Of a stretch of DNA of 64,000 nucleotides, positions 1 through 60,790 are shown piece after piece. Source of the stretch: Candidatus Omnitrophota bacterium (GTDB lineage: Bacteria; Omnitrophota; Gorgyraeia; JABMRN01; RBG-13-46-9). The stretch's first letter is position 1; each line of letters starts with the position of its first letter. Where the stretch lies: the NCBI GenBank assembly GCA_013203315.1, contig JABMQJ010000018.1, forward strand, positions 11,292-75,291, given 5' to 3'. The translations under genes and the position numbers were made by a program. The notes below the pieces were generated by a model, which had not been told where the DNA came from, ran no database searches, and saw only the letters and a program-made list of their open reading frames with translations.

Positions 1-339
1 AGATCCATGATGTTTGTAACGCCCTATCCTGGAACGCAGTTATTTGAGGATGCCGTTTCTGGGGGGCGTATTGAAAGGAATAAAATACATGATTTTGTTA
101 TGTCCCTAGAAGATGCTAGGGATTTTACTATTAATTTAACCGATGTATTTACCGATGAGGGTTTAATTTTAAAACGCGCAGAGATGATAAAGAATGTGTG
201 TTCACGAGTTAAATTGGAATCCAAAGAACATTATAAGGCTAAAGTGGAAAGTTTGTTTGGAGATTTAGCCAACGATTATTTTGAAAACGAAGTATTATTA
301 AAACACCGCACCGAACACGGCGGTATGGATATTTTTTAG
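1..339 (+). CDS. C-terminal fragment of a B12-binding radical SAM protein; 5' end lies upstream of the window
   Basis: Frame is open from nt 1 with no start inside the window. The 'TPYPGTQLFEDA' segment resembles the C-terminal region of cobalamin-binding radical SAM enzymes and is paralogous to the C-termini of the full-length B12-rSAMs at 12218, 16020, 23693 and 36227. Confidence 0.4.
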   Translation, partial: RSMMFVTPYPGTQLFEDAVSGGRIERNKIHDFVMSLEDARDFTINLTDVFTDEGLILKRAEMIKNVCSRVKLESKEHYKAKVESLFGDLANDYFENEVLLKHRTEHGGMDIF

Positions 340-344
340 AGACT

Positions 345-1061
345 ATGAAGATATTATCAGTAATCTGTGCACGATCAGGTAGCAAGGGATTGAAGAATAA
401 ATGCGTGACTAGGATTGGAGATAAGATGGTCATCGAGTACTCCATTGATTATTCGCTTTCTCTGGGAAATGACGTAAAGACGGTTGTATCAACGGATATC
501 GATGAGGTGATAACTTATTGTAAAGTTAATGGAGTTGATTACATAGCAAGGGATGAGAGTTTGTGTGGAGATAATACCAAGATCGAAGATGTCCTGGCTG
601 ATGCAATTAAAAAAAAGGGAAGAGGGCGCACATGTTGTAGCCTTGTTTACGGCAACATTCCAGTACGCTATCCACGAATGTTTCACAAGGCAGTGAGGTT
701 TCTGGAGGATAATATCGATTACGATGCAGTAATCAGCATGCAAAGGGTGGAGAAGTTTCACCCGGATTGGATGTTCCCATATAACAATGGACTCTTACCA
801 AAGATGGAAGAGGTCCACTATAGAAGACAAAGTCTATCTCCTAAAATGATACCCGACGGCCATACGCTATTATTCAAAATCAGGAAATTTGTGACAAAAC
901 ACAAAGGAATCCGTCCGTATCGTAAAGAATATAGATATTCCATCTTTGGAGATAAAATCAGGTCGTTAACGACAGATAAACTAATTATTGATATTGATAC
1001 GAAAAAAGACTTACATCTTGCCGAAGCATTCTTACAGGCAAAAAGGTCTTATAAGAAATGA
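345..1061 (+). CDS. Acylneuraminate cytidylyltransferase-family protein (CMP-nonulosonate/ulosonate synthetase-like, CTP_transf_3)
   Basis: N-terminal 'ICARSGSKGLKNK' is the characteristic NeuA/PseF/KdsB-type nucleotide-binding loop. Length is about 238 aa. Confidence 0.7.
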   Translation: MKILSVICARSGSKGLKNKCVTRIGDKMVIEYSIDYSLSLGNDVKTVVSTDIDEVITYCKVNGVDYIARDESLCGDNTKIEDVLADAIKKKGRGRTCCSLVYGNIPVRYPRMFHKAVRFLEDNIDYDAVISMQRVEKFHPDWMFPYNNGLLPKMEEVHYRRQSLSPKMIPDGHTLLFKIRKFVTKHKGIRPYRKEYRYSIFGDKIRSLTTDKLIIDIDTKKDLHLAEAFLQAKRSYKK

Positions 1062-1077
1062 ACGATAAGGAAGTGGT

Positions 1078-2100
1078 TTGAAAATGTACAGATTTGATAA
1101 TCATATTGCTGCTTATGACGAATCGCGGCGCTACAATCGCAAAGGAGAAATAGCAGCCTTCCCTCCTTATGTTACTTTTGAACTGGGAAATAGCTGTAAT
1201 TTTTCGTGCATTATGTGCCGTAAGACCTACATTAAGGAAAAGAAAGAAGAGCTAGATTTTTCAGTATTTAAGAAATGCGTAGACGAAATATCAAATTATG
1301 GAAGTCTGGTGAGATTTATAGGTTACTGCGAGCCGCTTCTCTATAGCAAAATAAAAGATGCTATACGATACGTAAAGAAAAAAGGACTACGTTTGCATAT
1401 TACGACAAATGGTAGCCTTTTAAACAGAGAGATGATAAATGCAATACTCGAAAACGAAGTAGATAGCGTAATTTTTTCTTTTCAAGGATTTACGCAAGAA
1501 GAAGATTGCTTTATGCGAAATATCTCTTGTAAAACCTACTCTAATGTAGTGAATAAAATAAAATTGCTGCATAAAAGTAGAAAATCTGAAAAGCCATATA
1601 TTACCATAAGTACCACAATCACAAGTCGTGATAATCCGGAATATGAAACTGAATTTATAAAAAGACATATGTGTTATGCGGACCAAGTTCAAGTTACTGG
1701 AGCCACGCATTTTGCGTTTATCGAGGATGAGTCCGGTATAAGAGATATAGAGAAAAAACTGGGGCTCAATAAGCCGCGAAAGCTGAAAAATGTGAAATGT
1801 TTTTTAACTAATTATGAGATGAAAATTGCAGAAAATGGAAATGTTTATATGTGTTGCGGTTCATTTACCGATGAACTTAATATCGGCAACATAGAGAAGA
1901 ATACTCTCTTTAATATGTGGCACTCCGAAAAAGCTATGAAAATTAGGGAAACGTTGGCATTCGGCGATCTGGATAAATTCAAGAACTGCAGGGCTTGCCA
2001 GATACGCTACGACTATGACAAAATAGGTAATACGATAATGAATACGATGAAGGGAAAGAACAAAAAAAAGAAGATGGAACTCTATGCAGAAGAAAGATAG
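1078..2100 (+). CDS. Radical SAM protein with C-terminal SPASM/twitch-like Cys cluster
   Basis: CxxxCxxC motif 'CNFSCIMC' near the N-terminus. C-terminal 'CCGS...NCRACQIRYDY' Cys-rich region. RBS AAGGAAG upstream. Confidence 0.65.
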   Translation: MKMYRFDNHIAAYDESRRYNRKGEIAAFPPYVTFELGNSCNFSCIMCRKTYIKEKKEELDFSVFKKCVDEISNYGSLVRFIGYCEPLLYSKIKDAIRYVKKKGLRLHITTNGSLLNREMINAILENEVDSVIFSFQGFTQEEDCFMRNISCKTYSNVVNKIKLLHKSRKSEKPYITISTTITSRDNPEYETEFIKRHMCYADQVQVTGATHFAFIEDESGIRDIEKKLGLNKPRKLKNVKCFLTNYEMKIAENGNVYMCCGSFTDELNIGNIEKNTLFNMWHSEKAMKIRETLAFGDLDKFKNCRACQIRYDYDKIGNTIMNTMKGKNKKKKMELYAEER

Positions 2101-3241
2101 TATAGAAACTTTTCAACGCAACACAAAAGCAATTACGTATTGCACGCGGTGCCTTATGCCCTCGACTCGACCGTGGATTAATCACAACGAACACGGTGCC
2201 TGTAACGCCTGCGAGAATGCCGAGGCCAAAAAAAGAAACATAGACTGGAAGGCAAGATGGAAAGAGCTCGAGAAGATATGCGATAAATACAGATCAAAAG
2301 GCGATACATTTGATTGCATCGTTCCTTGCAGTGGCGGGAAAGACGGTTCTATTGTTGCCTGGAAACTGAAACATGAGATGGGAATGCACCCTTTGTGCAT
2401 AACACTTGCACCACAACTTCCCACAAAAATAGGAATAGAGAATTTGCACAATTTCATAAATTCCGGGTTTGATCATTTATTGATTACACCAAACCCGCAA
2501 AATGAGAAAAAGATCGCTCTATTTGGAATGACTGAACAGGGAAGGCCTCGATTAAGCACCGTGCTTGGACAAACCACTGCTTTGGTGAACGCGGCAGTCA
2601 AGTTTAAGATCCCTCTTATCGTGTACGGCGAAGAAGGGCACAGCGAGTATGGAGGCGTTACCCATATGGGTACAAAATCGCACTTCACAAAAGAAGAAAG
2701 AATACAGCTTTATTTCAGTGGTAATGACCCTGACAAAATTGCCGAAAAGATAGGGATAAAGAGAAAAGACCTTCCGTGGATGCGTTTTCCGACACTACAG
2801 GAGCTACAGAGCGTAGGAATTCTATGGCTTCACTGGTCATATTTTGAAAAATGGAATCAATATGAGCACTATCTGCTTGCCAAGCGGCATTGCGAATTTA
2901 AGACATTACCCCAGCGCAGCATAGGTACGTATACAAATTTTGCGCAACTTGACGATGATATGCAAGACTTGCATGTTTATTTTATGTTTTTAAAATTTGG
3001 ATTTGGAAGGACAACCTCCGATGCATGCATAGATGTGCGCAGGGGAGCGCTTGATAGAAAACAGGCGCTTGCATTAGTAAGAAGATATGATGGAGAATAC
3101 CCAGAATCTTTAATCCCACATTTTCTAGACTATTTTAGCATGACGAAAGAACAATTTGACAGCATCATTGACAAGTGGGCAAATAGAGAAGTTCTGACAA
3201 AAGTAAATGGGATTTGGAAACTAAAAGAACTACCTTCTTAA
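2084..3241 (+). CDS. N-acetyl sugar amidotransferase (WbuX/PseA-like PP-loop amidotransferase)
   Basis: N-terminal zinc-ribbon 'CTRC...CNAC' followed by the PP-loop 'CSGGKDGS'. Directly followed by HisH-like and HisF-like genes, the classic WbuX-WbuY-WbuZ arrangement. Confidence 0.7.
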   Translation: MQKKDSIETFQRNTKAITYCTRCLMPSTRPWINHNEHGACNACENAEAKKRNIDWKARWKELEKICDKYRSKGDTFDCIVPCSGGKDGSIVAWKLKHEMGMHPLCITLAPQLPTKIGIENLHNFINSGFDHLLITPNPQNEKKIALFGMTEQGRPRLSTVLGQTTALVNAAVKFKIPLIVYGEEGHSEYGGVTHMGTKSHFTKEERIQLYFSGNDPDKIAEKIGIKRKDLPWMRFPTLQELQSVGILWLHWSYFEKWNQYEHYLLAKRHCEFKTLPQRSIGTYTNFAQLDDDMQDLHVYFMFLKFGFGRTTSDACIDVRRGALDRKQALALVRRYDGEYPESLIPHFLDYFSMTKEQFDSIIDKWANREVLTKVNGIWKLKELPS

Positions 3242-3252
3242 GAGGATACCAG

Positions 3253-3870
3253 ATGGTTTCTATCGTAAATTATAAGATGGGAAATATCCGTTCGATACAG
3301 AACGCGTTGTCGTATCTGGGTGTTGACTCTCGTGTGATAGATTCGCCCGAGGAGATATTGACCAGTAAGAAACTGATTCTTCCGGGAGTCGGTTCTTTCC
3401 GTGTTGCCATGGAGCACATACGGGCGATGAAGCTCTTTGAGGCCCTGAATGAGGCTGCATTAAAACAAGGAGTTCCTCTCCTTGGTATCTGTTTAGGAAT
3501 GCAGTTATTGGCAACTGAAGGTGAAGAGGAAGGCCCTACCAAGGGTTTTGGCTGGATTCCTGGCAGGGTAAAACGCTTTTCACCTGAAAGATTATCCATA
3601 AAGGTGCCGCACATAGGTTTCAATACAGTATATTTTGAGCCCAAATCCAAAACTCTATTTGAAGGGTTGGAAACTTGCGCTGATTTTTATTTCGTCCATA
3701 GCTACAGAATGATATGTGAGGAGCCCGAAAAATGCGTTTCATCATGGGCAGATTATGGTGAACGTTTTGTAGCCAGCGTAGAGCATCGCAATATCTTCGG
3801 TACTCAATTCCATCCGGAGAAAAGCCAAAGCAACGGCCTGACAGTGCTTAAGAATTTTTGTGCAATTTAA
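3253..3870 (+). CDS. Imidazole glycerol phosphate synthase HisH-like glutamine amidotransferase subunit (WbuY-type)
   Basis: Class I GATase motifs ('GVGSF', 'GICLGMQLL', 'HSY', C-terminal 'FGTQFHPEKS'). Start placed at the ATG after RBS AGAGGA rather than the upstream-extended ORF beginning at 3214. Confidence 0.75.
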   Translation: MVSIVNYKMGNIRSIQNALSYLGVDSRVIDSPEEILTSKKLILPGVGSFRVAMEHIRAMKLFEALNEAALKQGVPLLGICLGMQLLATEGEEEGPTKGFGWIPGRVKRFSPERLSIKVPHIGFNTVYFEPKSKTLFEGLETCADFYFVHSYRMICEEPEKCVSSWADYGERFVASVEHRNIFGTQFHPEKSQSNGLTVLKNFCAI

Positions 3871-3880
3871 GGTGTAATAA

Positions 3881-4711
3881 ATGGCAAAGAACCGTCTAAT
3901 CTTTACTTTGTTGATGCAGGAAGGGACTTACATGCTGAGTCGAAATTTTTCTCTCCAATCAGTAGGTGGGTTAGACTGGATAAAAGAATTCTATAATTTC
4001 GACGCTATAACTTTTTCTATTGACGAGCTTATCGTATTAAATGTAGAAAGAGGAGTGAGAAAAATCGATGAATTTTCGAAGAATCTAGCGGAATTAAACA
4101 AAGGTTGTTTTATGCCTTTGGCTGTCGGAGGAGGCATACGGACAATGGAACACGCCTACTCTCTTTTGAATGCGGGAGCCGATAAATTGATTATAAACAC
4201 CCCTTTGATTGAAGAGCCAAAATTTGTAAGTTCACTGGTTAAGACCTTTGGTAGCCAATGCATCATTGCTTCTATTGATTATAGAGTGAAAAAAGACGGT
4301 GACAATACGGTTTGTATCCGTAACGGATCTCACCCTACAGGTAAAGGGGTGGATGAAGTTGTAAAAATTGCCAGAAATCTTGGTTGTGGAGAAATTTACC
4401 TCACTTCTATAGATAAAGATGGAACAGGCGAGGGGCTTGATTTGGAATTAATTAGACAAGTTACGTCTACGGCCACAGTTCCGGTAATCGCTTCTGGCGG
4501 GGTAGGCAAATTTGGACATTTTACGGAGGGCTTATTACAGGGTAAGGCCGAAGCGGTTTCAACAGCCAACCTTTTCAACTTCATAGAGGATGGATTAATC
4601 GAAGCCAGATCAGATATGCAGAAAGAAGGAATAAAAATGGCTAGCTGGAATTTTAGTTTTTATAGTACAGTTCCGGAAAAAGTCGGATATAGTAAAAAAA
4701 GAAGCCAATAG
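3881..4711 (+). CDS. Imidazole glycerol phosphate synthase cyclase HisF-like subunit (WbuZ-type)
   Basis: TIM-barrel HisF signatures 'GGGIRT' and 'ASGGVG'. Adjacent to the HisH-like gene. Confidence 0.75.
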   Translation: MAKNRLIFTLLMQEGTYMLSRNFSLQSVGGLDWIKEFYNFDAITFSIDELIVLNVERGVRKIDEFSKNLAELNKGCFMPLAVGGGIRTMEHAYSLLNAGADKLIINTPLIEEPKFVSSLVKTFGSQCIIASIDYRVKKDGDNTVCIRNGSHPTGKGVDEVVKIARNLGCGEIYLTSIDKDGTGEGLDLELIRQVTSTATVPVIASGGVGKFGHFTEGLLQGKAEAVSTANLFNFIEDGLIEARSDMQKEGIKMASWNFSFYSTVPEKVGYSKKRSQ

Positions 4712-4759
4712 CATGATTGCTATCGATACATAAAAATAGAATTAGCACTTCGCAAAAAT

Positions 4760-5764
4760 ATGAAAGGAAAGTTTTTTATGAAATGCGGCATTACTCAAAA
4801 CATAGCAAAAAATCTCGTTTTTATTGATGGTATTACTCGTAGCGGCAAGTCAGTTTTTACAGGGATAATACCTTCATTGAGAGATTTTGAACATATACAA
4901 TTTTATCTCCTGATGGAGTTAATGATACCGGCTGTTTCTCTTGGCCTTACGGATGCGGAATACGTAAAAACTGTACTTCGCCTCCATATGGGCGAAGTCG
5001 CATATAATTTGTTATTGGCCAGAGGAATGAATTTCAGGTATGAAGATGAAACAGGGGTTTTGAATTACAAAGATCCTCAAGTTTACTACGAACGCCTAGC
5101 AAGGCAGGAGGGTGATAAGATAATCGAAGACTTGCTTTGCCATAAACGTTTTATCCCTTTCCATACACATGATTTACTTGTAAATCTAGAACATCTTAAT
5201 AAGATGGATATCGACTATAAAATGATATCGGTATTTAGGCACCCAATAGACAATAGTCATTCATGGTGGACGCGGGGCTGGGGAGAGCGTTTTGGCGTTG
5301 ACCCCAGGTCGTTTACTTTTTGCATCGATTACGAAGGAAAGTTAGTGCCATGGTATGTAGCAGGATTTGAGAAAGAATGGCTAGAATTAAATCCCAAGGA
5401 AAGGTGTATAAAAACCTCAATAAGCCTTATAAAGCGTGCCGTTAATCAATATAAAAATACGTCAGAAAAGAATAAAATTCACCTAATAAAGTTTAAGGAT
5501 TTTGTTCAAAATCCTCACGAGCAGATAGAAAAAATTTGTGCTTTTCTTAATACAAACACCACGCAACATACAGAGCATTTTATCCGCAAGGCCAAATGCC
5601 CGCGCGTGCTGAATCTCAAAGAAAGAGATTCGAATCTCGCAGAATTAAAGTCCGGTGTTAAGAAGGAAATATTTGAGTTGTTGTTAGAAACGTCCGAATC
5701 ATATGAGACTGATTTCTACGGCTTGCATAAAAAAGAAAATCTAGCGAAAGAAAAGATGGTTTAA
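4760..5764 (+). CDS. Sulfotransferase-family protein
   Basis: 5'-PSB-like 'GITRSGKS', 3'-PB-like 'RHPIDNSHSWW', and C-terminal 'IKFKDFVQNPHEQIEKICAFLN' resembling the sulfotransferase 'YEDL..DP...I..I..FLG' region. The true start may be the second ATG at 4778, which has RBS AAAGGAAAG. Confidence 0.5.
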   Translation: MKGKFFMKCGITQNIAKNLVFIDGITRSGKSVFTGIIPSLRDFEHIQFYLLMELMIPAVSLGLTDAEYVKTVLRLHMGEVAYNLLLARGMNFRYEDETGVLNYKDPQVYYERLARQEGDKIIEDLLCHKRFIPFHTHDLLVNLEHLNKMDIDYKMISVFRHPIDNSHSWWTRGWGERFGVDPRSFTFCIDYEGKLVPWYVAGFEKEWLELNPKERCIKTSISLIKRAVNQYKNTSEKNKIHLIKFKDFVQNPHEQIEKICAFLNTNTTQHTEHFIRKAKCPRVLNLKERDSNLAELKSGVKKEIFELLLETSESYETDFYGLHKKENLAKEKMV

Positions 5765-5769
5765 ACACA

Positions 5770-6729
5770 ATGGCTAAAAGTGTTGTAAAAAAATATTTTG
5801 AAGAAAATGCAGAATCCTGGGTGGCAGATGGCTACGGAGACGACGGTTATACTTATCCTGTTGGTCACCATCGAACACGCATTGTCCTTAAAGTGCTCTC
5901 AGGGTTAGGCAACTCATTAAAAGTCGTCGATTTAGGTTGCGGAGGAGGTCAGCTTTCTTGCGCATTAGCTGAAAGCGGGCACACCGTTGTCGGAATAGAC
6001 CAATCTGACAAAATGGTTAATATTGCTCAGAAAAACCGAAGTACCTTACCAGCAAAACTTCAGAAAAGAATTAACATAATACGTTGCCCGATAGAAAGTA
6101 ACAATCTTAAAGAGCATTCTTTTGACGCCGTAACGGCAATGGGTCTTATAGGATATCTACGCGATGACAATATACTTTTTAAAATTGCGCACCGGTTATT
6201 AAAACCAAACGGCATTTTTTTAGTGTCATGCAGAAACAGACTTTTTAACATGGTAAGCATAACACCCAAGACGAAAAGAGAGATAAGAAGCAAAACTGCT
6301 ATGCCTTTAATATCAGAGCTGGAAAGCCTGTATAAAACTGTCTCGAAAAAAGATGCTGACGAGCTGGTGCAAAGGTTTAAACACATCACTGCCAGCTTAC
6401 CGAACAAGACAATGTATGGCAAGATGGACATGTTGTCTCCGGCGGAAAAACTTAACGCGAATCCCTATCGCACACAAGTCGAAGCGCGTCAGCATACACC
6501 AAAAAATTTATTGCGCACCGCTATGAAATTTGGTTTTTCCAATAAAGCGTATTACGGCGTTCATCCGCACATAATTGCTCCGCCTGCGAACCGATTGTTA
6601 CCGCCTGGTATTTTTAACAAAATTTCAAATTGCCTGGAAGCACTGGAGCACTTACCTGTTAGTTTAATATGGAGTTCTGTTTTTATAGGTGTTTTTAAGA
6701 AGAAAAAAGAGAAGAATCATGAAAAATGA
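5770..6729 (+). CDS. Class I SAM-dependent methyltransferase
   Basis: Motif I 'VVDLGCGGGQLS' and overall Rossmann methyltransferase layout. Confidence 0.65.
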   Translation: MAKSVVKKYFEENAESWVADGYGDDGYTYPVGHHRTRIVLKVLSGLGNSLKVVDLGCGGGQLSCALAESGHTVVGIDQSDKMVNIAQKNRSTLPAKLQKRINIIRCPIESNNLKEHSFDAVTAMGLIGYLRDDNILFKIAHRLLKPNGIFLVSCRNRLFNMVSITPKTKREIRSKTAMPLISELESLYKTVSKKDADELVQRFKHITASLPNKTMYGKMDMLSPAEKLNANPYRTQVEARQHTPKNLLRTAMKFGFSNKAYYGVHPHIIAPPANRLLPPGIFNKISNCLEALEHLPVSLIWSSVFIGVFKKKKEKNHEK

Positions 6730-8731
6730 AATACTCATCGTTGATATACTTAACATCTATAGCTTATTTTCCGCTGTTACGAGATACAGGGACATTCGTT
6801 TAATCCATTATCTACGTAAAGGCAGATTTGTGAATACAGCGGTTAAACTGCTTACGAAACTGGGCTGGTCATTTGAGTTAATACAGTATTCATTGGATTC
6901 TTTTGGCGGCAAATACCCTTTCAAAGAGCTTAATACGGCTATGCTTGATACGATAACAACATATGGAAAAAAAGTTTTTTCAGGCGAATTAAAAAAATTG
7001 AATATATCAGAATATGAACACAAGCGTTTATTAACTTGCTTTAGTAGTCATATGGGAATGGAGATATACTTCGAGATGCAGCTATTCATTTTGCTTTCAG
7101 TCAACAATCTTTTTGAAAACAAGAACATAAAAGCTATCTTGTTGAGAAAGTCGTTATTTTCTGATGTTTTAAAGGAAATATATGAAAGAAGAAAATTCAG
7201 CACATATTTTTATAGGTCTTTTGATAAGCTATTTATACCACGTGAATTGTATTCTTGGGATAAAGCAATTTTGAGAGCGCGCAAGAAAAATTATCGCAAA
7301 ATTATTAAAATAATTTTATTTTCTTGCTGTTCACTTGTGTTTAAAACGGCCTTACTATTTCTAAAGTCTACCCGTAATATGAAAAAGCATAAGATATGCG
7401 TATTATTGAGTAACAGCTTTGGTACTGTCTTGTCCAATGGCTTGCCATGGGGCGTCGAAGAACCAAGCTATTTAAGAGATGAGACCATCGCATTTTATCG
7501 TGAAACAATGCCAAAAGAGGCTATGGATTTTTATAAGAAGCGTTCAGACAAATTTGTAAAATATAGCTTAAATCCGATAAACTGCGGTAGAAATGTCGAA
7601 ATTGTAAAGCCGTGGTCTGATTTTGCTGGTTTTCTAATAAAAAATATATCGCGTTACCTACCTTTATTCAACTTGCACAAAATAAATCGTTGGCTTTTTG
7701 GGTATATTTTCGATGTTATCGTAGATTTAAGTTTTTTTGAACCTCTATTTCTGTTTAACGGAACAAAGATATTATGGTTTATAGATTCGGATAATACCCA
7801 CATGCAGGTTGCTGCTATAGCAATTAACAGGGTTGGCGGTATTAGTCTTGGTACGTCGGGATCCCTTGCACTCTTACCTGAGTGGAGCATTCACCACAAC
7901 AAAAATGATATTTTCTTTGTTTGGGGCAAACGATTCCTCAATATAAGTATAAACACCAAAGACCAAAGCGATTCTTTTGTGATGACCGGGCATTTTGCGG
8001 ACAAGGCCTTTTTAGATGAGATCAAAAAGGCAGAGGAGTTCCGTTCCTCGCTTACAAAAAAATACCGAATAAAGAATGTAGTTACTTTTTTTGACACCGG
8101 CTCTGGTTGGGATCAGTTTATTACTCCTAGGCGAGTTTTTGAGATATATGAGCAGTTTTTTGCATGGTTGAATGAGGATAACAGCAATTTTCTTGTAATT
8201 AAAGCAAAAGGCCAAAAGACAATAAACAAATATCCTGAATTAAAAAAAGAGATAGACAAATTTTGTACAACTGGACATGCCCTCATTTCTTATGAAAGAT
8301 CCGCTGTATACCCTGGGCTGGCAGCCGACGTTGCTTTAAGCGCATCTCCGACATTATCATCCATAACCGCTATGTTGGGTAGGCCTGTCATATTTTATGA
8401 TATTCAGGGCACATACGATGAATACTCCTTTGCGCTTCCGACTGTTAGTGTCATTGACGATGTGTGCAAGATGCGCGAAGCGATAAATATTGCGATAAGA
8501 AAAAAACAAAATCTTGGGTATCAATACAAGCTAGGGCCGATAAAAGATTCGGCCGTTGATCAATTTGCAGATGGGAAATCTATAGTCAGAATGCGTGCGT
8601 ATATAGAAAATCTATTAGAGGCTTTTGACCAGAAACATTCTAATTCCGCCGCCATAAGATTTGCAAATGATGAGCATAAAAAACAGTGGGGTGAGGGTAC
8701 TGTAACCAGAGGTCCTTTGCCGGTTAAGTAG
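6719..8731 (+). CDS. Large hypothetical protein with TagF/KpsS-like (CDP/CMP-donor GT-B-like) C-terminal domain; paralog of 17489 and 22172
   Basis: C-terminal 'LVIKAKGQ...AADVALSASPTLSSITAMLGRPVIFYD' parallels the TagF-family 'K.HP...aDvLItDYSS...kPiifY' layout. Start placed at the ATG at 6719, which overlaps the preceding gene. Confidence 0.35.
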   Translation: MKNEILIVDILNIYSLFSAVTRYRDIRLIHYLRKGRFVNTAVKLLTKLGWSFELIQYSLDSFGGKYPFKELNTAMLDTITTYGKKVFSGELKKLNISEYEHKRLLTCFSSHMGMEIYFEMQLFILLSVNNLFENKNIKAILLRKSLFSDVLKEIYERRKFSTYFYRSFDKLFIPRELYSWDKAILRARKKNYRKIIKIILFSCCSLVFKTALLFLKSTRNMKKHKICVLLSNSFGTVLSNGLPWGVEEPSYLRDETIAFYRETMPKEAMDFYKKRSDKFVKYSLNPINCGRNVEIVKPWSDFAGFLIKNISRYLPLFNLHKINRWLFGYIFDVIVDLSFFEPLFLFNGTKILWFIDSDNTHMQVAAIAINRVGGISLGTSGSLALLPEWSIHHNKNDIFFVWGKRFLNISINTKDQSDSFVMTGHFADKAFLDEIKKAEEFRSSLTKKYRIKNVVTFFDTGSGWDQFITPRRVFEIYEQFFAWLNEDNSNFLVIKAKGQKTINKYPELKKEIDKFCTTGHALISYERSAVYPGLAADVALSASPTLSSITAMLGRPVIFYDIQGTYDEYSFALPTVSVIDDVCKMREAINIAIRKKQNLGYQYKLGPIKDSAVDQFADGKSIVRMRAYIENLLEAFDQKHSNSAAIRFANDEHKKQWGEGTVTRGPLPVK

Positions 8732-8742
8732 AAGAGGTATAT

Positions 8743-9945
8743 ATGAATTTTACTCGAAAAAAGCTAAATATGGTTGTTGTAGGTGCAGGCATGTATGCTT
8801 GCGGAAGAGGAACGAAAGAATATGGGACAATTATTCCAGCTATCCTTGAATGGAAGAAGAAGGGTAGCCTTGGTGAAGTCTATGTTGTCGGCACAAGTTC
8901 GAAAAATATACGGATATCTAAAAATAAAATAAAAAAGCTTGAAAAATACACGGGTATAAAAGCTCCTTTGACATATTTTCCACAAAATCGAACGAATGAT
9001 TTGCAATGTTACAAAAAAGCGATACGCATGGTTCCCAAGCCTGCAGTCTGCATTATAGCCGTTCCGGATAATCTTCATAGTCGTATCGCAAGCGAAGCAA
9101 TTAAAGCAGGTGTGCATACGTTTGTCGTAAAACCGCTCGCGCCGACAGTAAAAGAAGTTTTGAAGCTAGTTAGCGCTGGCAAGAGAAAAGGTGTTTATTG
9201 CGCCGTAGATTTTCATAAGCGCTTTGACCGCGCTAATATAAAATTAAAAGATACAATCTTGCAGAACGTAATAGGCGATCCTTTGTATTTTCTCGCTGAA
9301 TATAGCCAGCGAAAGAGCATACCGCATAAAAGATTTAGAAAATGGGTTAAAAATACGAATATATTCCAATATCTCGGAATCCACTATCTTGATATCATAT
9401 ATTTTGTTACGGGCGCTACCCCTAAAAGGGCGATGGCAACCGGGCAAAAAGGATGGCTTTTTTCGAAGGGAATAAATACCTACGATTCAATTGAGGCCCA
9501 CATAGAATGGGAGACCTCATCCGGTAAAAAATTCACTTCGCATATATTAACAAATTGGATTGACCCTGAGTCGACATCCGCAATGTCAGACCAGAAAATT
9601 AAAGTAATAGGTACTAAAGGAAGATTTGAGTCAGATCAGAAAAGAAGGGGCATAACGATTGTTACAGATGAAAAAGGCATAGAGGAACCTAATCCATATT
9701 TTTGTTCTGCTTACGGCAAAGACGGAGCAGCTTCTTACCGTGGTTATGGAATAGAGAGCATTCACCAGTTCTTAGAAGATGTAATGCAAATTACCGAATA
9801 CAGGCTAAGCATAGAAGAGCTGGAAGATAAAAGACCTACTTTTAAACAATCTCTAGTACTAACGGCCACTCTGGAAGCTGTAAACAAAAGCCTTAAGAAC
9901 AATAATCAATGGGTAAGGGTTGGGAGCGTGAAGCAATATGACTAA
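8743..9945 (+). CDS. Gfo/Idh/MocA-family NAD(P)-dependent oxidoreductase
   Basis: N-terminal 'MVVVGAG' Rossmann segment. 'VPDNLHSRIASEAIKAGVHTFVVKPLA' matches the Gfo/Idh/MocA consensus (P..H...A..AGKHV..EKP). RBS AAGAGG. Confidence 0.55.
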   Translation: MNFTRKKLNMVVVGAGMYACGRGTKEYGTIIPAILEWKKKGSLGEVYVVGTSSKNIRISKNKIKKLEKYTGIKAPLTYFPQNRTNDLQCYKKAIRMVPKPAVCIIAVPDNLHSRIASEAIKAGVHTFVVKPLAPTVKEVLKLVSAGKRKGVYCAVDFHKRFDRANIKLKDTILQNVIGDPLYFLAEYSQRKSIPHKRFRKWVKNTNIFQYLGIHYLDIIYFVTGATPKRAMATGQKGWLFSKGINTYDSIEAHIEWETSSGKKFTSHILTNWIDPESTSAMSDQKIKVIGTKGRFESDQKRRGITIVTDEKGIEEPNPYFCSAYGKDGAASYRGYGIESIHQFLEDVMQITEYRLSIEELEDKRPTFKQSLVLTATLEAVNKSLKNNNQWVRVGSVKQYD

Positions 9946-11005
9946 GATTCGAATTCCTGTTAATAAACTTAAAAGTTTTGCTAAAGAAGTTTTGTTGAAA
10001 GCGGGTACACGCAAAGATGTGGCGGAATATGTTGCCGAAGGTCTTGCACAAACTTCTTTAAGAGGCGTTGATTCACATGGCATAAGACTTTTTCCTCACT
10101 ATCTTGAAGGTGTCAAAAAAGGGCGAATTAACCCAAAACCAAAATACAAATTTAAAAAAACATCTGCAACTACGGGACTATTTGATGCCGATCATACGTT
10201 TGGTCATGCCGCAGGCATGGAAGCCGCCAAAAAAGCAGTTAAACTTGCTAGTGAAGCAGGCACCGGCCATATCGCTATTTATAACTCAAGTCACTTTGGA
10301 GCGGCGGCGTACTATGCGTTAGAAATAGCGAAACACGATATGATAGGGATGAGTTTTACAAACACAGACGCCCTTGTTAAAACATACGCAGGCAAAAGAT
10401 CCTTTTTAGGTAATAACCCTATATGTTTTGCTGCCCCGTGCAAGGATGAAGAGCCGTTTTGTCTTGATATGGCTACGAGCATAGTAACCTTTAATAAGAT
10501 AAAACAGCTATGTGCAGAAGGTAAAGAAGCTCCACCGGGAGTTGGCACAGATAAAGAAGGGATGGAAACCACCAAGTCATTCGATATAAGTATGCTTTTA
10601 CCCATGGGTACCTATAAAGGCTACGGTCTTAGTATGGTTATAGAAATTTTATGTAGTTTACTGACAGGCGCACCTTACGGACCGCATATTCCAAAGATGT
10701 TTGAGCGGCCTATGAATGAAAAACGTTACCTAGGGCATTTCATAATAGCTATAAATATTGGTTGTTTCCAAAAAATAAATGTTTTTAAAGAACGCTTATC
10801 TTGTATGATGAATGAGCTCAGAAGTGAACCGAGATTGAATGCGGAAATACCTATTCAAATAGCGGGTGATCCCGAGAAAAATGCTGCTAGAAAAAGAACG
10901 ATCGAAGGCATTCCGGTAGATCAAGAAGAGTATGAAAGGTTCAAAAAAATCGCCAATGAATATAAAATTGTTATTGATTTCGATAAAAAAGGAGACCGAC
11001 ATTGA
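9938..11005 (+). CDS. Malate/L-lactate/sulfolactate dehydrogenase family (Ldh_2) oxidoreductase
   Basis: 'RGVDSHGIRLFPHY' and 'TGHIAIYNSSHFGAAAYYA' are signature segments of the Ldh_2 family (AllD/ComC-like). Length is about 355 aa. Confidence 0.55.
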   Translation: MTKIRIPVNKLKSFAKEVLLKAGTRKDVAEYVAEGLAQTSLRGVDSHGIRLFPHYLEGVKKGRINPKPKYKFKKTSATTGLFDADHTFGHAAGMEAAKKAVKLASEAGTGHIAIYNSSHFGAAAYYALEIAKHDMIGMSFTNTDALVKTYAGKRSFLGNNPICFAAPCKDEEPFCLDMATSIVTFNKIKQLCAEGKEAPPGVGTDKEGMETTKSFDISMLLPMGTYKGYGLSMVIEILCSLLTGAPYGPHIPKMFERPMNEKRYLGHFIIAINIGCFQKINVFKERLSCMMNELRSEPRLNAEIPIQIAGDPEKNAARKRTIEGIPVDQEEYERFKKIANEYKIVIDFDKKGDRH

Positions 11006-11127
11006 ATCTATTGAAAGTGCTGATCAAAAAAATAGCAATGTTTTTTGCTAAATATTTTTCAAACGGGAAAAAAAATGATTCGACTCCACCGGATGATTAT
11101 TACCCTCTTTTTTAGAAAGGAAACTTT

Positions 11128-12231
11128 ATGTTTTGGTTAATAATTTTCTTGATTTCAATAATATCTTTAGAAGTTGCATCGTATTTTATATACCGCAGCA
11201 ATAAAGACATAAAGGAAATTTTAAAAGAAATGCTTAAAAGGAGCCAGAAAGGTGACATAAGAACTTTTACGCCCAGATATATAGAGCATCCTTTTCTTGC
11301 ATTTAGCCTAAACCCTGAATTCAAAAATTCTTTTGGAGAAAAAATCCATAACAAATATGGTTTCCGAAGCAATGATGATTTTTCCAACATTAAGGAGAAG
11401 GATCTTATATATTGCGCAGGTGCAAGCTCTACATATTGCAATTTTATCGAAAAAAACGAGGATACTTGGCCTCACATCCTGGAAGGGGAATTACATCAAG
11501 AATTAAACCACGATGACATAAGAGTTATAAACGGCGGCTGCGGTGCTTGGACGAGCTATCAGAGTTTAATAAGGTTTTCTGCCTGGGTAGATGTTATGAA
11601 GCCAAAACTCGTTATTATATATCATGGGAAAAATGATTTTTCACCAATATTAAACGCTAAACCATCGGTGTCAGAAATCTATCCCGATTACGGAAACGTT
11701 ATGCGTTCACTACGATTTGATAGTGTTGCGAGATATCTTCCTCGGCTTGCAAAATATACATATACGGGCAAGGTTTTGTATGGGCGTTACATAAATTCAA
11801 AGTACAGCAACGTATTATGGCACGTATATAATTTAAACAAATTGCTGACGCGAGAAACAGCCTTAAAGAATACACAGAGAATAGGCTCGAGAGAAAAAGA
11901 TATTATATTTTCAAGGTTTAAATCGTTTGCATCCCTGTGTAGCTATAGGGCAATTCCTATTCTTTTTGTTGCCCAGAAAGTAATAAGCGACATCTTCGAG
12001 CCTTACATAAAGGAGCTGAATGAGCGAATAGCGACACTGGAGGACCGTGCCAATGGGTGTTTCGTGTATGATTTCGCTAAAGACGTTGTTGACAAAAAAA
12101 ATCTGCTTTCTGACCACATACACTTTTCAGAAAATGGCACAAAAATTTTCAGTAAACTTTTAAAGAATTATATAGTACGCAATATCACTCCTTTTAAAGA
12201 AGGAAAAGAGAAAGTCCATGTCAGTAAATAG
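11128..12231 (+). CDS. SGNH/GDSL-like hydrolase with N-terminal transmembrane anchor
   Basis: N-terminal hydrophobic helix. Block I-like 'LIYCAGASSTY'. C-terminal 'DHIHFSENG' (DxxH catalytic block). Confidence 0.45.
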   Translation: MFWLIIFLISIISLEVASYFIYRSNKDIKEILKEMLKRSQKGDIRTFTPRYIEHPFLAFSLNPEFKNSFGEKIHNKYGFRSNDDFSNIKEKDLIYCAGASSTYCNFIEKNEDTWPHILEGELHQELNHDDIRVINGGCGAWTSYQSLIRFSAWVDVMKPKLVIIYHGKNDFSPILNAKPSVSEIYPDYGNVMRSLRFDSVARYLPRLAKYTYTGKVLYGRYINSKYSNVLWHVYNLNKLLTRETALKNTQRIGSREKDIIFSRFKSFASLCSYRAIPILFVAQKVISDIFEPYIKELNERIATLEDRANGCFVYDFAKDVVDKKNLLSDHIHFSENGTKIFSKLLKNYIVRNITPFKEGKEKVHVSK

Positions 12232-13888
12232 TAGTATCACAGATTTGGCTATTATTATTCCACCAGCAGGGCCAAAAAATTCAAATTATCCGCCTTACGG
12301 AGCCTTGTATATAGCCGGTGCACTAAAAGAGGCTGGGTACCAGACAGAAATAGTAAACGTTGACACGGAGCGGTATACAAATCAAGAGGTAGTTGAAAAA
12401 ATAAGAAAATTAAACCCTACATATATAGGATTCAGTGGGATAGTGGCGCCATCCTACAAGTACATTAAAGATATAAGTTTTGATTTTAGGAAAGCGTTTG
12501 CGAACAAAGTGCAGATTTTAGGCGGAGGGTTAGCCAGTGCTGCCGAAGCCGTGCTGAAAAACACATCCATAAATATCATCGTCAGAGGCGAAGGAGATAG
12601 AACAATTGTAGAATTAATGGACTGCTTGAAAAAAGGCGGCGATCTGAAAAATGTGCCCGGAATTTGCTATAAAGAAGGAAGCAAGATTGCATATTCTGTC
12701 GATAGACGCTTAATTATGAACCTAGATAGCCTCCCGTATCCCGCATTTGATTTGATAGACATGGATAAATATCTTCCTAACGGAGCTGAATTTATCCAAG
12801 GTTTTACAAGAGGGATAGATGATAAAAGGATCTACCGCTTAAAAAAAAGTGGAAAAAGAAAGATGATTTCTTTTATGACAAGTCGAGGATGCTTTGGCAG
12901 GTGTGCTTTTTGTTTTAGAGCCTATCCCGGCCTAAGAATGTATTCGATAGACTACATTTTTAATTTTATAGACTACTGTATAGAAAAATTTAATGTAGGC
13001 TTTATTACTTTTGCGGATGAATGTTTTGCACCGAATAAGAAAAGGAATTGGGAATTTATAGAAGAGTTTAAAAAAAGAAAACCAGATATTGTTTTTAGAA
13101 TATTAGGAATGCGGGTGGATACTGTAGATAAAGAAATTCTAAAAGCTTATAAAGAAATCGGATGCTGGATGATAGAATACGGCTTCGAATCAGGCAGCCA
13201 AAAAATGCTTAATATAATAAGTAAAGATGTAACAGTAGAAGACAACAGGTGTGCGGCATTGTGGTCAAAAGAAGCAGGAATATTTACCATGCCGACCGCA
13301 GTTTTAGGCATGCCCGGCGAAACAAACGAAACCATACAGGAAACCATAAATTTTCTAAAATCGCTCTCGTTAGATTTCAAGCAATTTCAGTGGTCATATG
13401 CCCTTCCTATACCCGGATCACAACTTTATGACTTTGCAAAGCTAACAGGTGCCATAGATGACGATGATAAATATCTTTCGTCTTTGGTAGGGCCTGTTGG
13501 GCATGCGGGTATTTTTCACATCAATCTTACAGATCAACCGGACGAAGAGGTTGCAAACTGGGCTAGGAAAATAAGCCGAGAGCTGGATAATGATTTTTTT
13601 AATCGAAAGCTTAAGTATAAACATAAATTTATAAAAGAATTGATGCGTCTTATTGCCTTGATAGAGCTTCACCATAGAAAGAAAACCTTGTTTTCTGTGC
13701 TAAGGCTACGGGTTAAAAACTTTTTTAAAAGACACAAAGTCGGAAAAAACCAAAAAGCAGGGATTTGCTTCAGGAAAAAAATAACAATAGACGTAGAACG
13801 ATTTATTAATAAAAATTCATATTTTAATGTAGACAATGAAGTCTCGCTCAAGCGTATTAATAAAAAGCTAAACGAGATAGTAACATAG
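12218..13888 (+). CDS. Cobalamin (B12)-binding radical SAM protein
   Basis: N-terminal B12-binding-like Rossmann region, then radical SAM Cys triad 'TSRGCFGRCAFCF'. C-terminal 'PIPGSQLYD' matches the fragment at 1..339. Confidence 0.7.
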   Translation: MSVNSSITDLAIIIPPAGPKNSNYPPYGALYIAGALKEAGYQTEIVNVDTERYTNQEVVEKIRKLNPTYIGFSGIVAPSYKYIKDISFDFRKAFANKVQILGGGLASAAEAVLKNTSINIIVRGEGDRTIVELMDCLKKGGDLKNVPGICYKEGSKIAYSVDRRLIMNLDSLPYPAFDLIDMDKYLPNGAEFIQGFTRGIDDKRIYRLKKSGKRKMISFMTSRGCFGRCAFCFRAYPGLRMYSIDYIFNFIDYCIEKFNVGFITFADECFAPNKKRNWEFIEEFKKRKPDIVFRILGMRVDTVDKEILKAYKEIGCWMIEYGFESGSQKMLNIISKDVTVEDNRCAALWSKEAGIFTMPTAVLGMPGETNETIQETINFLKSLSLDFKQFQWSYALPIPGSQLYDFAKLTGAIDDDDKYLSSLVGPVGHAGIFHINLTDQPDEEVANWARKISRELDNDFFNRKLKYKHKFIKELMRLIALIELHHRKKTLFSVLRLRVKNFFKRHKVGKNQKAGICFRKKITIDVERFINKNSYFNVDNEVSLKRINKKLNEIVT

Positions 13889-13890
13889 TT

Positions 13891-14634
13891 ATGAAAAAAA
13901 TACTTTCCGGAAAACAGAAAATACTAGCCATGATACCTGCAAGAATGGGCAGTACAAGGCTTTCCATGAAAAATCTTGCACTTATCAATAAAAAACCTCT
14001 TATTTATTATGCTGTTGGAGCCGCCAAAGCGTCAAAGATATTTGATGACATAATTATCAATTCCGAGGATGGTATATTCAAAAAAATAGCAGCGCGCTAT
14101 AAAGTAAAATTTTATAAAAGGCCTATTAAATTAGGCGGTTCCTCTGTTAAATCCGATATGGTTGTATATGATTTTATCAAGAAAAACCCCTGTGATATCG
14201 TCGTATGGGTTAATACTATAGCACCGCTTCAAGTCGGGGAGGAAATTAAAAATATAGTAAAATATTTTGTTAATAAAAAACTCGATTCACTCATAACGGT
14301 TAAAGACGAACGAGTTCACTGTATATATAAAGGCAAGCCCGTTAATTTCAAGAAAGAAGCCACTTTTGCTAAAACGCAGGATCTTTTGCCGGTTCAACCC
14401 TTTGTATATTCGGTTATGATGTGGCGAACGGATGTCTTTATGAGCACCTTCAAGAAAAAAGGGCACGCGCTTTTCTGCGGCAAGACAGCTTTTTATCCGG
14501 TAAGCAAGCTATCAACATTTATAATCAAGAGAAAAGAAGACCTTGCATTGGCAGATTTTATTATGCGTGCGATGAAAAAAAGATACAGGGTGTGCTATGA
14601 CAAAGTTCTCAAAAATAGGAGAACAGGGAATTGA
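13891..14634 (+). CDS. Acylneuraminate cytidylyltransferase-family protein (CMP-sugar-acid synthetase-like)
   Basis: 'LAMIPARMGSTRLSMKNL' N-terminal nucleotide-binding loop typical of NeuA/PseF/LegF-type cytidylyltransferases. Confidence 0.7.
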   Translation: MKKILSGKQKILAMIPARMGSTRLSMKNLALINKKPLIYYAVGAAKASKIFDDIIINSEDGIFKKIAARYKVKFYKRPIKLGGSSVKSDMVVYDFIKKNPCDIVVWVNTIAPLQVGEEIKNIVKYFVNKKLDSLITVKDERVHCIYKGKPVNFKKEATFAKTQDLLPVQPFVYSVMMWRTDVFMSTFKKKGHALFCGKTAFYPVSKLSTFIIKRKEDLALADFIMRAMKKRYRVCYDKVLKNRRTGN

Positions 14635-16016
14635 AAAACTATAATGTCTCAATTATCATAAGAACCAAAAATGAAGAGCGCTGGATATCACAGTGCCTGA
14701 ACGCTGTTTTGAGCCAAACCTATAGGGATTTCGAAATCATCATAGTTGATAACGAAAGTCAGGACAAAACAATAGAGAAGGCAAAACAATTTAAGGAACG
14801 GCTTAGCGATAAAAATAGGCTGAAAGTCATAGAATGCAGTGACTATCTTCCGGGAAAAGCGTTAAACATGGGAATAGAAAAAGCTACCGGGACATTTATT
14901 GCATGTCTATCTGGGCATTGTATTCCTGCAAACGATAAATGGCTGGAAAGTCTTTTAGAGCCTTTTGGTACAGACCAGCGTGGCGTTATAGCCGGGGTAT
15001 ACGGACGGCAGCAGCCGATGTCTTTTACGTCTGACTCTGATAAAAGAGATTTGACCCTGGTTTTCGGGATGGACAAGAGGGTCCAGAAAAAGGATAGCTT
15101 CTTCCACAATGCCAACAGCATGATAAGGCGGGATGTATGGAAAGATGTGCGATTCGATGACAAGGTCACGAATATTGAAGACAGGGTATGGGCAAAAGAG
15201 GTACTGGATAGAAAAAAGGAGATTGTATATACACCCGATGCCAGCGTATATCATTATCACGGGATACACCAAAATGGAAATAGCGAAAGATGTGCCAACG
15301 TAGTTCGAATAATGGAAGGCATGCATTCCGATTACAGCAAAAAATACATCGAAATCGAAAAGCTGAACATAGTTGCCCTAATACCCATAAAAGACGAAAT
15401 CAAATACTTAAATAAAAAACCTCTTATTGAATACACCGTAAAAAGGGCCTTGGATTCAAAATATGTTAAAAAAGTAGTAGTTTCAACCGATAATGAAAAA
15501 ATGGCCAGCCTCGCAAAAAAACTCGGAGCAGAAGCACCCTTTATAAGAGACCCGTATCTTTCAAAAGAAGACGTAAGTATAAGTAATGTGCTAGAATTTT
15601 CACTCAAAAAAATGGAAGAAGAAAAAATATTTCCAGATCTTATTGTATCACTCGAGGCTACCTTTCCGTTCCGGCCAAGCGGTCTGATAGACGGGATGAT
15701 AATAGAGCTGGCAAAAAGAGGGTTAGATAGTATAAGGGCCGTCAAAACGGAAAATAAGGCTATTTGGAAAGAAGAACGCGATAGGAATATAAAACAGCTT
15801 GATGAGGGAGTAACACCCCGCAAATTAAAGGACCCAACTTTCATAGAACTCAGGGGAGTGGGGACCGTAACACACCCAGAGTTCTTAAGAAACGGTTCTC
15901 TTTTTGGGCAAAAAAATGGTATTTACGAAGTAAATAACCCCTATTCGCACATTGAGGTAAGAGACGAGGAGGATTTTGAAATGGCTTCGGTTCTCATGAA
16001 GGAATGGTTTAAATAA
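14631..16016 (+). CDS. Two-domain protein: GT2 glycosyltransferase N-terminal domain fused to a cytidylyltransferase-like C-terminal domain with a degenerate P-loop; apparent TTG start
   Basis: N-terminal 'VSIIIRTKNEE...DFEIIIVDNESQD' GT2 signature. C-terminal half 'IVALIPIKDEIKYLNKKPLIEY...VVVSTDNEKMASLAKKLGAE' has CTP_transf_3 architecture but lacks the GS(K/R)G loop. In-frame start is TTG at 14631, preceded by AGGAG. Confidence 0.5.
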   Translation: MKNYNVSIIIRTKNEERWISQCLNAVLSQTYRDFEIIIVDNESQDKTIEKAKQFKERLSDKNRLKVIECSDYLPGKALNMGIEKATGTFIACLSGHCIPANDKWLESLLEPFGTDQRGVIAGVYGRQQPMSFTSDSDKRDLTLVFGMDKRVQKKDSFFHNANSMIRRDVWKDVRFDDKVTNIEDRVWAKEVLDRKKEIVYTPDASVYHYHGIHQNGNSERCANVVRIMEGMHSDYSKKYIEIEKLNIVALIPIKDEIKYLNKKPLIEYTVKRALDSKYVKKVVVSTDNEKMASLAKKLGAEAPFIRDPYLSKEDVSISNVLEFSLKKMEEEKIFPDLIVSLEATFPFRPSGLIDGMIIELAKRGLDSIRAVKTENKAIWKEERDRNIKQLDEGVTPRKLKDPTFIELRGVGTVTHPEFLRNGSLFGQKNGIYEVNNPYSHIEVRDEEDFEMASVLMKEWFK

Positions 16017-55679: not shown

Positions 55680-55680
55680 T

Positions 55681-60776: not shown

Positions 60777-60790
60777 GTTACTTCAAAAGT

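Follow-up and report, generated by a model that had tools for sequence, protein, structure and literature searches.

The 64,000-nucleotide (nt) stretch of DNA analysed here (the window), which comes from a Candidatus Omnitrophota bacterium (contig JABMQJ010000018.1, positions 11,292 to 75,291), is one plus-strand run of polysaccharide genes with a GC content of ~40%, in which genes for B12-binding radical S-adenosylmethionine (SAM) enzymes adjoin genes for relatives of NeuA, a cytidine monophosphate (CMP)-sugar synthetase. Three such enzymes (B12z, B12a and B12b) and three NeuA-like domains are concerned: CT1, CT2 and CT3, the last being the C-terminal half of a fusion with a family 2 glycosyltransferase (GT2) domain, GT2::CT3 (Table 1). 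A sequence-only reading of the window had singled out the radical enzyme/cytidylyltransferase arrangement at B12z-CT1 and at B12a-CT2, and the position of B12b directly after CT3; its coordinates and junctions all proved correct. The stop codon of B12z (TAG, 337-339) is 5 nt from the ATG of CT1 (345), that of B12a (TAG, 13886-13888) is 2 nt from the ATG of CT2 (13891), the CT2 stop overlaps by 4 nt the TTG start (14631) of GT2::CT3, and the stop of this fusion (16014-16016) is followed after 3 nt by the ATG of B12b (16020). When the 54 window genes (five B12-binding radical SAM, three cytidylyltransferase) are permuted, P is 0.02 for at least two cytidylyltransferase genes with a B12-binding radical SAM gene directly upstream and 0.005 for all three being flanked by one. 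The central finding concerns B12z and CT1, a pair that is probably co-translated, ends a legionaminic acid (Leg)-type pathway and has been conserved across many lineages.

The window opens within B12z. The fragment at 1-339, which has no Pfam or NCBIfam match when taken alone, corresponds without any difference to the C-terminal 112 residues of a 479-amino-acid (aa) protein on a contig of the same organism (L089:8475-9914), the anchors for finding contigs that cover B12z being the HisF-like protein and P0121, the CT1 of public annotation. The complete protein carries PF02310, PF04055 and the cluster motif CPFSCTFC. The combination of an N-terminal PF02310 domain with a PF04055 core containing CxxxCxxC, by which B12-binding (class B) radical SAM enzymes are recognised, is found in B12z, B12a and B12b alike. 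The public call for CT1 is 211 aa long and uses a later start, which removes the cytidine triphosphate (CTP) P-loop; the 238-aa open reading frame (ORF) from the ATG at 345 fits the N-termini of its homologs.

CT1 is the only one of the three NeuA-like domains that looks like a canonical CMP-sugar synthetase. All three match PF02348, as expected of relatives of NeuA and KdsB (PDB 1eyr, 6ifd, 9ftb and 1vh1), CT1 with 48.3 bits for a gathering score of 22.6, and the CT1 family profile aligns full-length to Neisseria meningitidis NeuA (1eyr). In that enzyme, the P-loop, Arg165/Gln166 and Asp209/Asp211 are needed for activity, Arg165 having been reported to bind the carboxylate of the sugar acid, while D209A and D211A are each crippling (PMC2901514). 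CT1 keeps the P-loop (CARAGSKGLxNKC), the RRQxLP motif (RRQSLPQ; Arg165/Gln166) and the IDIDT motif (Asp209/Asp211), with equivalents of NeuA Arg12, Lys21, Arg165, Asp209 and Asp211 retained. An invariant Tyr sits at the position of the sugar-binding Gln104 of NeuA, a replacement that would accord with another sugar being used. Generic KdsB orthologs, an outcome that the sequence-only reading had set against itself, were rejected for all three domains because their scores are far under the NCBIfam equivalog cut-offs (for CT1 and PseF, 52 bits against 206).

In metagenomes, a CT1-family profile picked up 60 loci, of which the 48 with an upstream ORF were used for scoring. A B12z ortholog lies directly upstream of the CT1 homolog, on the same strand, in 43 of these 48 loci, with gaps mostly of 3-22 nt. 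After clustering of CT1 at 90% identity, this is the case in 31/36 informative clusters, and the pair is retained where CT1 identity falls to 44-48%. It is also present in three NCBI assemblies (CP070672.1, a Candidatus Scalindua metagenome-assembled genome (MAG) and GCA_041643055.1). The flanking genes are more changeable: in CP070672.1 (L151) the pair has no Leg core nearby, and in Candidatus Scalindua (L152:6942-8519) an AAA-ATPase gene is found between the PtmE-like gene and B12z, the B12z-CT1 junction being untouched. B12z orthologs score 580-814 bits, and no ORF away from the CT1 gene in the loci examined scores more than 190 bits against B12z. A tblastn search of plasmids with B12z gave only paralogs (at most 32% identity), and a scan of viral contigs found no CT1 relatives. 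As side observations, the Scalindua locus has a fragment of a transposase 2 kb further downstream, and CP070672.1, a single 4.2-Mb contig labelled as a Thermoplasmata archaeon, contains bacterial-type glycan genes, so that its taxonomic label may merit checking.

It might be argued that this adjacency is inherited operon order without metabolic coupling, with B12z acting on an acyl substituent or on a neighbouring sugar. Radical SAM genes are indeed common here, five B12-binding ones and several SAM methyltransferase genes being scattered in the glycan cluster of the window, and many CT1 loci come from similar marine samples. We nevertheless consider this explanation improbable, as the adjacency, which is shared by Omnitrophota, Scalindua and an assembly labelled Thermoplasmata, is still there when CT1 identity has dropped to 44%, survives rearranged or interrupted flanking genes, and involves a radical enzyme that is better conserved (53-72% identity) than its partner (44-64%).

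The genes around the pair point to its role. Immediately upstream of the window come, in order, genes for the synthesis of 3'-phosphoadenosine 5'-phosphosulfate, a sulfotransferase, a LegB-like dehydratase, LegC (TIGR04181, 471.5 bits, cut-off 420), a NeuD/PglD-type N-acetyltransferase (TIGR03570, 210.6 bits, cut-off 160.8), a PtmE-like protein with CBS and NTP_transferase domains, a NeuC-type hydrolysing 2-epimerase/LegG (TIGR03568, 464.6 bits, cut-off 235.9), B12z and CT1. The components by which a Leg locus is identified – LegC, NeuC-type epimerase, PglD/NeuD acetyltransferase and a nucleoside triphosphate transferase forming a guanosine diphosphate product, here the PtmE-like protein – are therefore present, and the LegB-like dehydratase scores 53 bits with the LegB-specific model (cut-off 475). 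In relatives, the usual order is LegC, LegH, NeuB, LegG, PtmE, B12z, CT1, HisF, HisH and WbuX, the 342-360-aa ORFs in their Leg clusters being NeuB (PF03102). Of the 18 loci that extend 6 kb or more upstream, B12z is found in 17, LegC in 16, NeuB in 16, LegG in 14 and a second NeuA-like gene in none, which points to CT1 as the CMP-activating enzyme of the Leg-type pathway. Downstream of CT1, the HisF-HisH-WbuX trio is found in most relatives, and a radical SAM/SPASM gene directly follows CT1 also in the Scalindua locus and in three others (L125/126/128). These genes (Table 1) would together make up a first module, A, in which a Leg-type nonulosonic acid pathway ends in B12z-CT1 and is followed by tailoring genes (radical SAM/SPASM and WbuX/HisH/HisF amidotransferase).

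When compared with the canonical Leg pathway (LegB, LegC, LegH, LegG, LegI, LegF and PtmE of Campylobacter/Legionella), the resemblance is clear: LegC, a NeuD/PglD-type acetyltransferase, NeuC/LegG, a CBS-NTP-transferase and a single NeuA-like gene are in one operon, and NeuB/LegI is in the clusters of relatives. There are three kinds of differences, which are (i) the near-obligatory extra B12-binding radical SAM gene before the CMP-synthetase gene, (ii) CT1 itself, far under the PseF cut-off and with its Tyr at the Gln104 position, and (iii) the lack of NeuB in this organism, no NeuB/LegI-type synthase having been found in 74 kb (window 1-64000 and L089:1-10000; best tblastn E value 0.47). 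The local pathway is therefore either incomplete or uses a gene sited elsewhere. B12z as a stand-in for the missing NeuB was rejected, since relatives carry both.

Genes for sulfation surround the Leg-type genes as well. They encode adenosine 5'-phosphosulfate kinase, ATP sulfurylase and a pair of sulfotransferases (L089:1-3388 and window 4760-5764), which suggests a sulfated glycan. A sulfotransferase gene also follows WbuX in CP070672.1, and another is near CT1 in a further locus (L153).

Table 1. Genes of the first 22 kb of the window, with the matches or other evidence on which each is named.
Feature	Position	Strand	Evidence
B12z, C-terminal 112 codons (479-aa B12-binding radical SAM enzyme; remainder upstream of window)	1..339	+	identical to C-terminus of L089:8475-9914
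CT1, predicted NeuA-type CMP-nonulosonate synthetase, LegF-like step	345..1061	+	PF02348 (CTP_transf_3), 48 bits
Radical SAM/SPASM enzyme, second radical enzyme flanking CT1	1078..2100	+	PF04055 + PF13186
WbuX-type N-acetyl sugar amidotransferase	2084..3241	+	TIGR03573, 338 bits (cut-off 203)
HisH-like glutamine amidotransferase subunit	3214..3870	+	PF00117
HisF-like cyclase/synthase subunit	3881..4711	+	PF00977, 145 bits
Sulfotransferase, then methyltransferase	between HisF-like gene and U680; sulfotransferase at 4760..5764	+	
U680, conserved 680-aa protein, no recognisable family	6689..8731	+	
GFO/IDH/MocA oxidoreductase (GFO)	8743..9945	+	Pfam
Ldh_2-family 2-hydroxy/2-oxo-acid dehydrogenase	9938..11005	+	PF02615, 349 bits; under all NCBIfam equivalog cut-offs
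GDSL-family esterase/acylhydrolase	11128..12231	+	Pfam
B12a, 556-aa B12-binding radical SAM enzyme	12218..13888	+	PF02310 + PF04055
CT2, NeuA-fold protein	13891..14634	+	PF02348 (CTP_transf_3), 53.9 bits
GT2::CT3 fusion (GT2 residues 7-172, CTP_transf_3 residues 257-378)	14631..16016	+	Pfam
B12b, 490-aa B12-binding radical SAM enzyme	16020..17492	+	B12-binding + Radical_SAM
U639, GT-B-fold protein, putative glycosyltransferase	17459..19378	+	AlphaFold2 model, Foldseek
Second radical SAM/SPASM enzyme	19375..20367	+	Pfam
ABC exporter, transmembrane and ATPase domains fused	20379..22175	+	Pfam; downstream of U639 in close relatives (synteny)

As for its chemistry, B12z would radically modify, most likely by cobalamin-dependent C-methylation, the Leg-type nonulosonate or its CMP ester. 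Most characterised B12-binding radical SAM enzymes are methylases, which makes methylation the default for the class. The nearest solved relatives of B12z (phmmer) are the radical SAM diol dehydratase AprD4 (6fd2, E 1.6e-24, 90 bits) and the B12-dependent glutamine C-methyltransferase QCMT/MgmA (9ccb, E 2.8e-23, 86 bits). B12z has the same domain order as both, an N-terminal Rossmann/B12-like domain and then the radical SAM core, but the matches are distant, and AprD4 and QCMT act on an aminoglycoside and a protein, respectively, neither being linked to a cytidylyltransferase. Owing to the nearly equal scores of a dehydratase and a methylase, a reaction other than methylation has to be taken seriously. 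B12z might then be a dehydratase, epimerase or rearrangement enzyme like AprD4, BchE or HpnJ, altering the deoxygenation or stereochemistry of the nonulosonate (to give, for example, an epi- or further-deoxy Leg), which CT1 would activate. It may be added that epimers of legionaminic acid (4-epi, 8-epi) are known to occur in nature, made by routes that have not been fully worked out, and that AprD4 is the best match of known structure and BchE and HpnJ are the best partial NCBIfam matches. The QCMT match, however, extends over a longer stretch (residues 65-396), the B12-binding domain is above the Pfam cut-off, and methylases predominate among characterised enzymes of this class, which leaves this alternative possible but doubtful.

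If B12z modifies the Leg-type sugar, the order of events may take either of two forms: CT1 would supply the CMP-linked substrate to B12z, or modification would come first and CT1 would have specialised in activating the modified acid. A reaction on the CMP ester is attractive since (i) B12z is more tightly linked to CT1 than to the other Leg genes, (ii) amidotransferase genes come downstream of CT1 and (iii) there is a precedent in fosfomycin biosynthesis, in which the CMP ester made by the cytidylyltransferase domain of Fom1 is the substrate of the B12-dependent radical SAM enzyme Fom3 (PMC8158854). The two-enzyme logic and the tight linkage are the same, known here from gene linkage, but B12z-CT1 sits in a nonulosonic sugar acid pathway and not in a phosphonate pathway. 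A Fom-like phosphonate pathway was rejected because no match of the phosphoenolpyruvate mutase type was found by Pfam among 50 window proteins scanned (all but four ORFs at 55.7-64.0 kb). The functional link of the Fom1/Fom3 kind that the sequence-only reading had put forward is hence plausible for this pair, set as it is in a nonulosonic acid pathway, and is not supported for the second pair or the third arrangement.

The second pair, B12a-CT2, has quite different surroundings. A scan of genomes with a CT2-family profile gave 80 loci, of which 74 were scored for neighbours, from Omnitrophota, Planctomycetota, Desulfobacterota, Nitrospirota, SAR11, Legionellaceae, Bacteriovoracaceae and candidate phyla radiation lineages, and the module also occurs in the cultured Marinomonas piezotolerans YLB-05. 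The window CT2 is 100% identical to a Candidatus Omnitrophica MAG protein (HQ549_04560). The gene directly upstream of CT2 in the 74 loci is Ldh_2 (19), GFO (12), a methyltransferase (6), U639 (5), GDSL (4) or a B12-binding radical SAM gene (2); coordinates indicate direct B12a-CT2 adjacency in one Omnitrophota locus (L026) besides the 74. Within five genes upstream and six downstream, GT2::CT3 is found in 60 loci (directly adjoining CT2 in 26), GFO in 59, Ldh_2 in 49, U639 in 37 and any B12-binding radical SAM gene in 24. B12a orthologs, defined by more than 670 bits, are restricted among CT2 loci to nine of Omnitrophota/Planctomycetota, 0-2 genes upstream of CT2, and are found in marine CT1 loci without CT2 as well. 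The conserved partners of CT2 are thus GFO, Ldh_2, GT2::CT3 and U639, while B12a and B12b are lineage-specific additions. Conservation across genomes, as predicted by the sequence-only reading, is therefore seen for the first pair and not for the second, and the third arrangement, B12-binding radical SAM gene directly after GT2::CT3, recurs in just 4/53 loci.

Module B (8.7-19.4 kb), comprising GFO, Ldh_2, CT2, GT2::CT3 and U639, would therefore be a separate and widely distributed cassette. NeuB is found in 23 of ~80 CT2 loci, i.e. it is missing from most, and GFO with Ldh_2 could, on chemical reasoning, yield a 2-oxo sugar acid without an aldolase. The AlphaFold2 model of U639 has a predicted local distance difference test (pLDDT) score of 92 and a glycosyltransferase B (GT-B) fold, for which the nearest Foldseek matches, with low template modelling (TM) scores, are NeuC/WecB 2-epimerases and GT-B transferases; there are weak DUF6716 matches in 7/34 members, and the U639 profile gave nothing significant against PDB sequences. 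U680 accompanies both locus types (8/18 long CT1 loci, 7/74 CT2 loci), often just before B12a, and has no Pfam, NCBIfam or PDB-sequence match even with a 17-sequence profile, the PDB search giving only spurious antibody matches.

Whether CT2 and CT3 could be synthetases like CT1 depends on their active sites. CT2 has the NeuA fold, its AlphaFold2 model matching 1eyr with a Foldseek E value of 1.5e-17 and a TM-score (TMt) of 0.73 (0.73-0.78 for 1eyr and 6ifd), although the dimerisation arm is poorly modelled as a monomer, and the P-loop is intact and KdsB-like in the family (IPARMGSTRLxMKNL). However, at the positions that matter in NeuA it has Thr162 for Arg165 and an invariant Lys213 for Asp211, while Asp209 falls in a deletion (hmmsearch against 1eyr, hhalign against CT1), with Asn108 and Thr110 in the region of NeuA Gln104 and KdsB Asp100, and so it lacks both an Arg165 equivalent and acidic Mg2+ ligands, be they those of NeuA (Asp209/Asp211) or of KdsB (Asp98/Asp225). 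In CT3 (residues ~244-461 of the fusion), an eight-residue deletion takes out the P-loop (SKGLxNKC), including the Lys21 region (hhalign against CT1), whereas Arg397 is kept as the Arg165 equivalent, and Glu442 and Arg444 are at the Asp209 and Asp211 positions. The GT2 domain (14631-15250; PF00535, 106.7 bits) has no DXD motif, as an invariant Ser94-Gly-His96(-Cys97) aligns to the DCD of chondroitin synthase; it also has a His-rich invariant stretch (YHYHGIH, ~206-213), which suggests a different metal site or a different chemistry. The missing-residue calls in CT2, CT3 and the GT2 domain are strong hints rather than proof.

The sequence-only reading had seen in these genes repeated units of a B12-binding radical SAM enzyme and a NeuA-like cytidylyltransferase, each making a differently modified CMP-ulosonic acid. 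The arrangement does appear twice in the window, with a third flanking case and the low permutation P values given above, and two other NeuA-like paralogs (L017, L031) have a B12-binding radical SAM gene upstream, but these are 2 of the 16 in the scanned loci. The units are not homologous copies, as CT1 and CT2 have no BLASTP match at 1e-3 and B12z and B12a are 27% identical, so that the pair is recurrent in arrangement and not by duplication. With adjacency conserved for the first pair alone, and with essential NeuA residues missing from CT2 (Arg165, Asp209/Asp211) and CT3 (the P-loop), this model of repeated units is very unlikely, being largely refuted for the second pair by the neighbourhood data, and three parallel CMP-sugar synthetases have become less likely as well; the general idea of a modular radical SAM/cytidylyltransferase pathway is partly supported, by B12z-CT1, and its extension to a repeated module is not supported.

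The canonical catalytic set is incomplete in both CT2 and CT3, but in different places, so that the two probably act jointly or have a role outside standard CMP-sugar synthesis. Their residues point to a heterodimer that shares a single composite site, or to another function altogether. In the fullest version of the former, a composite site formed by the CT2 P-loop and the CT3 Arg165 equivalent would activate an ulosonic acid whose synthesis needs no aldolase, GFO converting an aldose to the aldonate and Ldh_2 the aldonate to the 2-oxo acid, and the DXD-less GT2 domain and/or U639 would then transfer the sugar from its CMP donor. NeuA Arg165 acts across the dimer interface, which would suit a split site, and the two sets of defects are complementary. 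The co-occurrence and frequent adjacency of CT2 and GT2::CT3, the badly modelled dimerisation arm of CT2, the rarity of NeuB in CT2 loci and the replacement of DXD by SGH also fit, as does the requirement for Arg165, which binds the sugar-acid carboxylate, in NeuA (PMC2901514). However, a composite site would still be without both metal-binding Asp residues, and the substrate proposal comes from chemical reasoning, so that this scenario, taken with its substrate and transfer steps, is an unlikely one.

The best explanation of the region as a whole, which we hold to be probable though by no means secure, is that two unrelated glycan-precursor modules, A and B, have been joined in an Omnitrophota genome. 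Several points count against the picture drawn here: (i) the neighbourhood census is anchored on CT1 and CT2 only, (ii) many of the CT1 loci come from related marine samples and are not fully independent, (iii) NeuB is missing from the 74 kb surveyed, (iv) neither BchE nor HpnJ, the best partial NCBIfam matches of B12z, is a methylase, nor is the dehydratase AprD4, and (v) the residues of CT2 and CT3 were called from profile alignments in a divergent C-terminal half, with low hmmsearch posteriors and hhalign probabilities of 88-93%.

Each component falls in a known superfamily (NeuA-type synthetases, B12-binding radical SAM enzymes, Leg enzymes). What we have not found described is a near-obligatory radical SAM partner of a CMP-nonulosonate synthetase, full-text literature searches having turned up no paper that connects radical SAM enzymes with the biosynthesis of legionaminic, pseudaminic or nonulosonic acids; a search for CTP_transf_3 with Ldh_2 gave nothing relevant. 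Cell surfaces and flagella are decorated with nonulosonic acids (sialic, legionaminic, pseudaminic), which govern recognition by phages, hosts and the immune system. A near-obligatory B12-binding radical SAM partner of their CMP-activating enzyme would bring radical carbon chemistry to these sugars, extend the logic of a cytidylyl handle for class B radical SAM enzymes beyond phosphonates, and suggest that uncultured lineages depend on cobalamin for making their surface glycans. The boldest combination is that B12z C-methylates or otherwise radically remodels CMP-Leg-type sugars and that CT2 and GT2::CT3 form a split, heterodimeric cytidylyltransferase with a DXD-less GT-A transferase, which, both parts being taken jointly, can be entertained only tentatively. 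If true, B12z would reveal a class of modified nonulosonic acids not known before, widespread in marine/subsurface uncultured bacteria and possibly archaea, and CT2 with GT2::CT3 would be a novel machine for CMP-dependent glycosylation with an ulosonic acid whose formation involves no aldolase. Module B, found in at least one cultured strain, the Marinomonas named above, is made a tractable system by its non-canonical active sites.

The locus is also unusually rich in radical SAM genes for a polysaccharide cluster, with five B12-binding and two radical SAM/SPASM genes in ~39 kb. The five B12-binding enzymes (L089:8475-9914 and window 12218-13888, 16020-17492, 23693-25213 and 36227-37558) are 23-30% identical to one another, B12z being 23-28% identical to the four others. 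Further along, the ORFs at 25226-26206 (GT2) and 25969-27048 (methyltransferase) overlap, as listed, by 238 nt, the true start of the second being probably further downstream. A series of GT2 paralogs at 46918-51749 includes a double-GT2 protein (760 aa), each half of which is 35-39% identical to the next gene, and ends with two 259-aa paralogs, 32% identical to each other. Finally, five consecutive paralogous large membrane proteins are encoded at 52870-62404 (pairwise identity 21-34%), three of which match PMT_2 (ArnT/PMT-like) with 22-40 bits, one above the Pfam cut-off, while the other two (52870-54987, without Pfam match, and 60791-62404, outside the Pfam scan) are connected to them by BLASTP.

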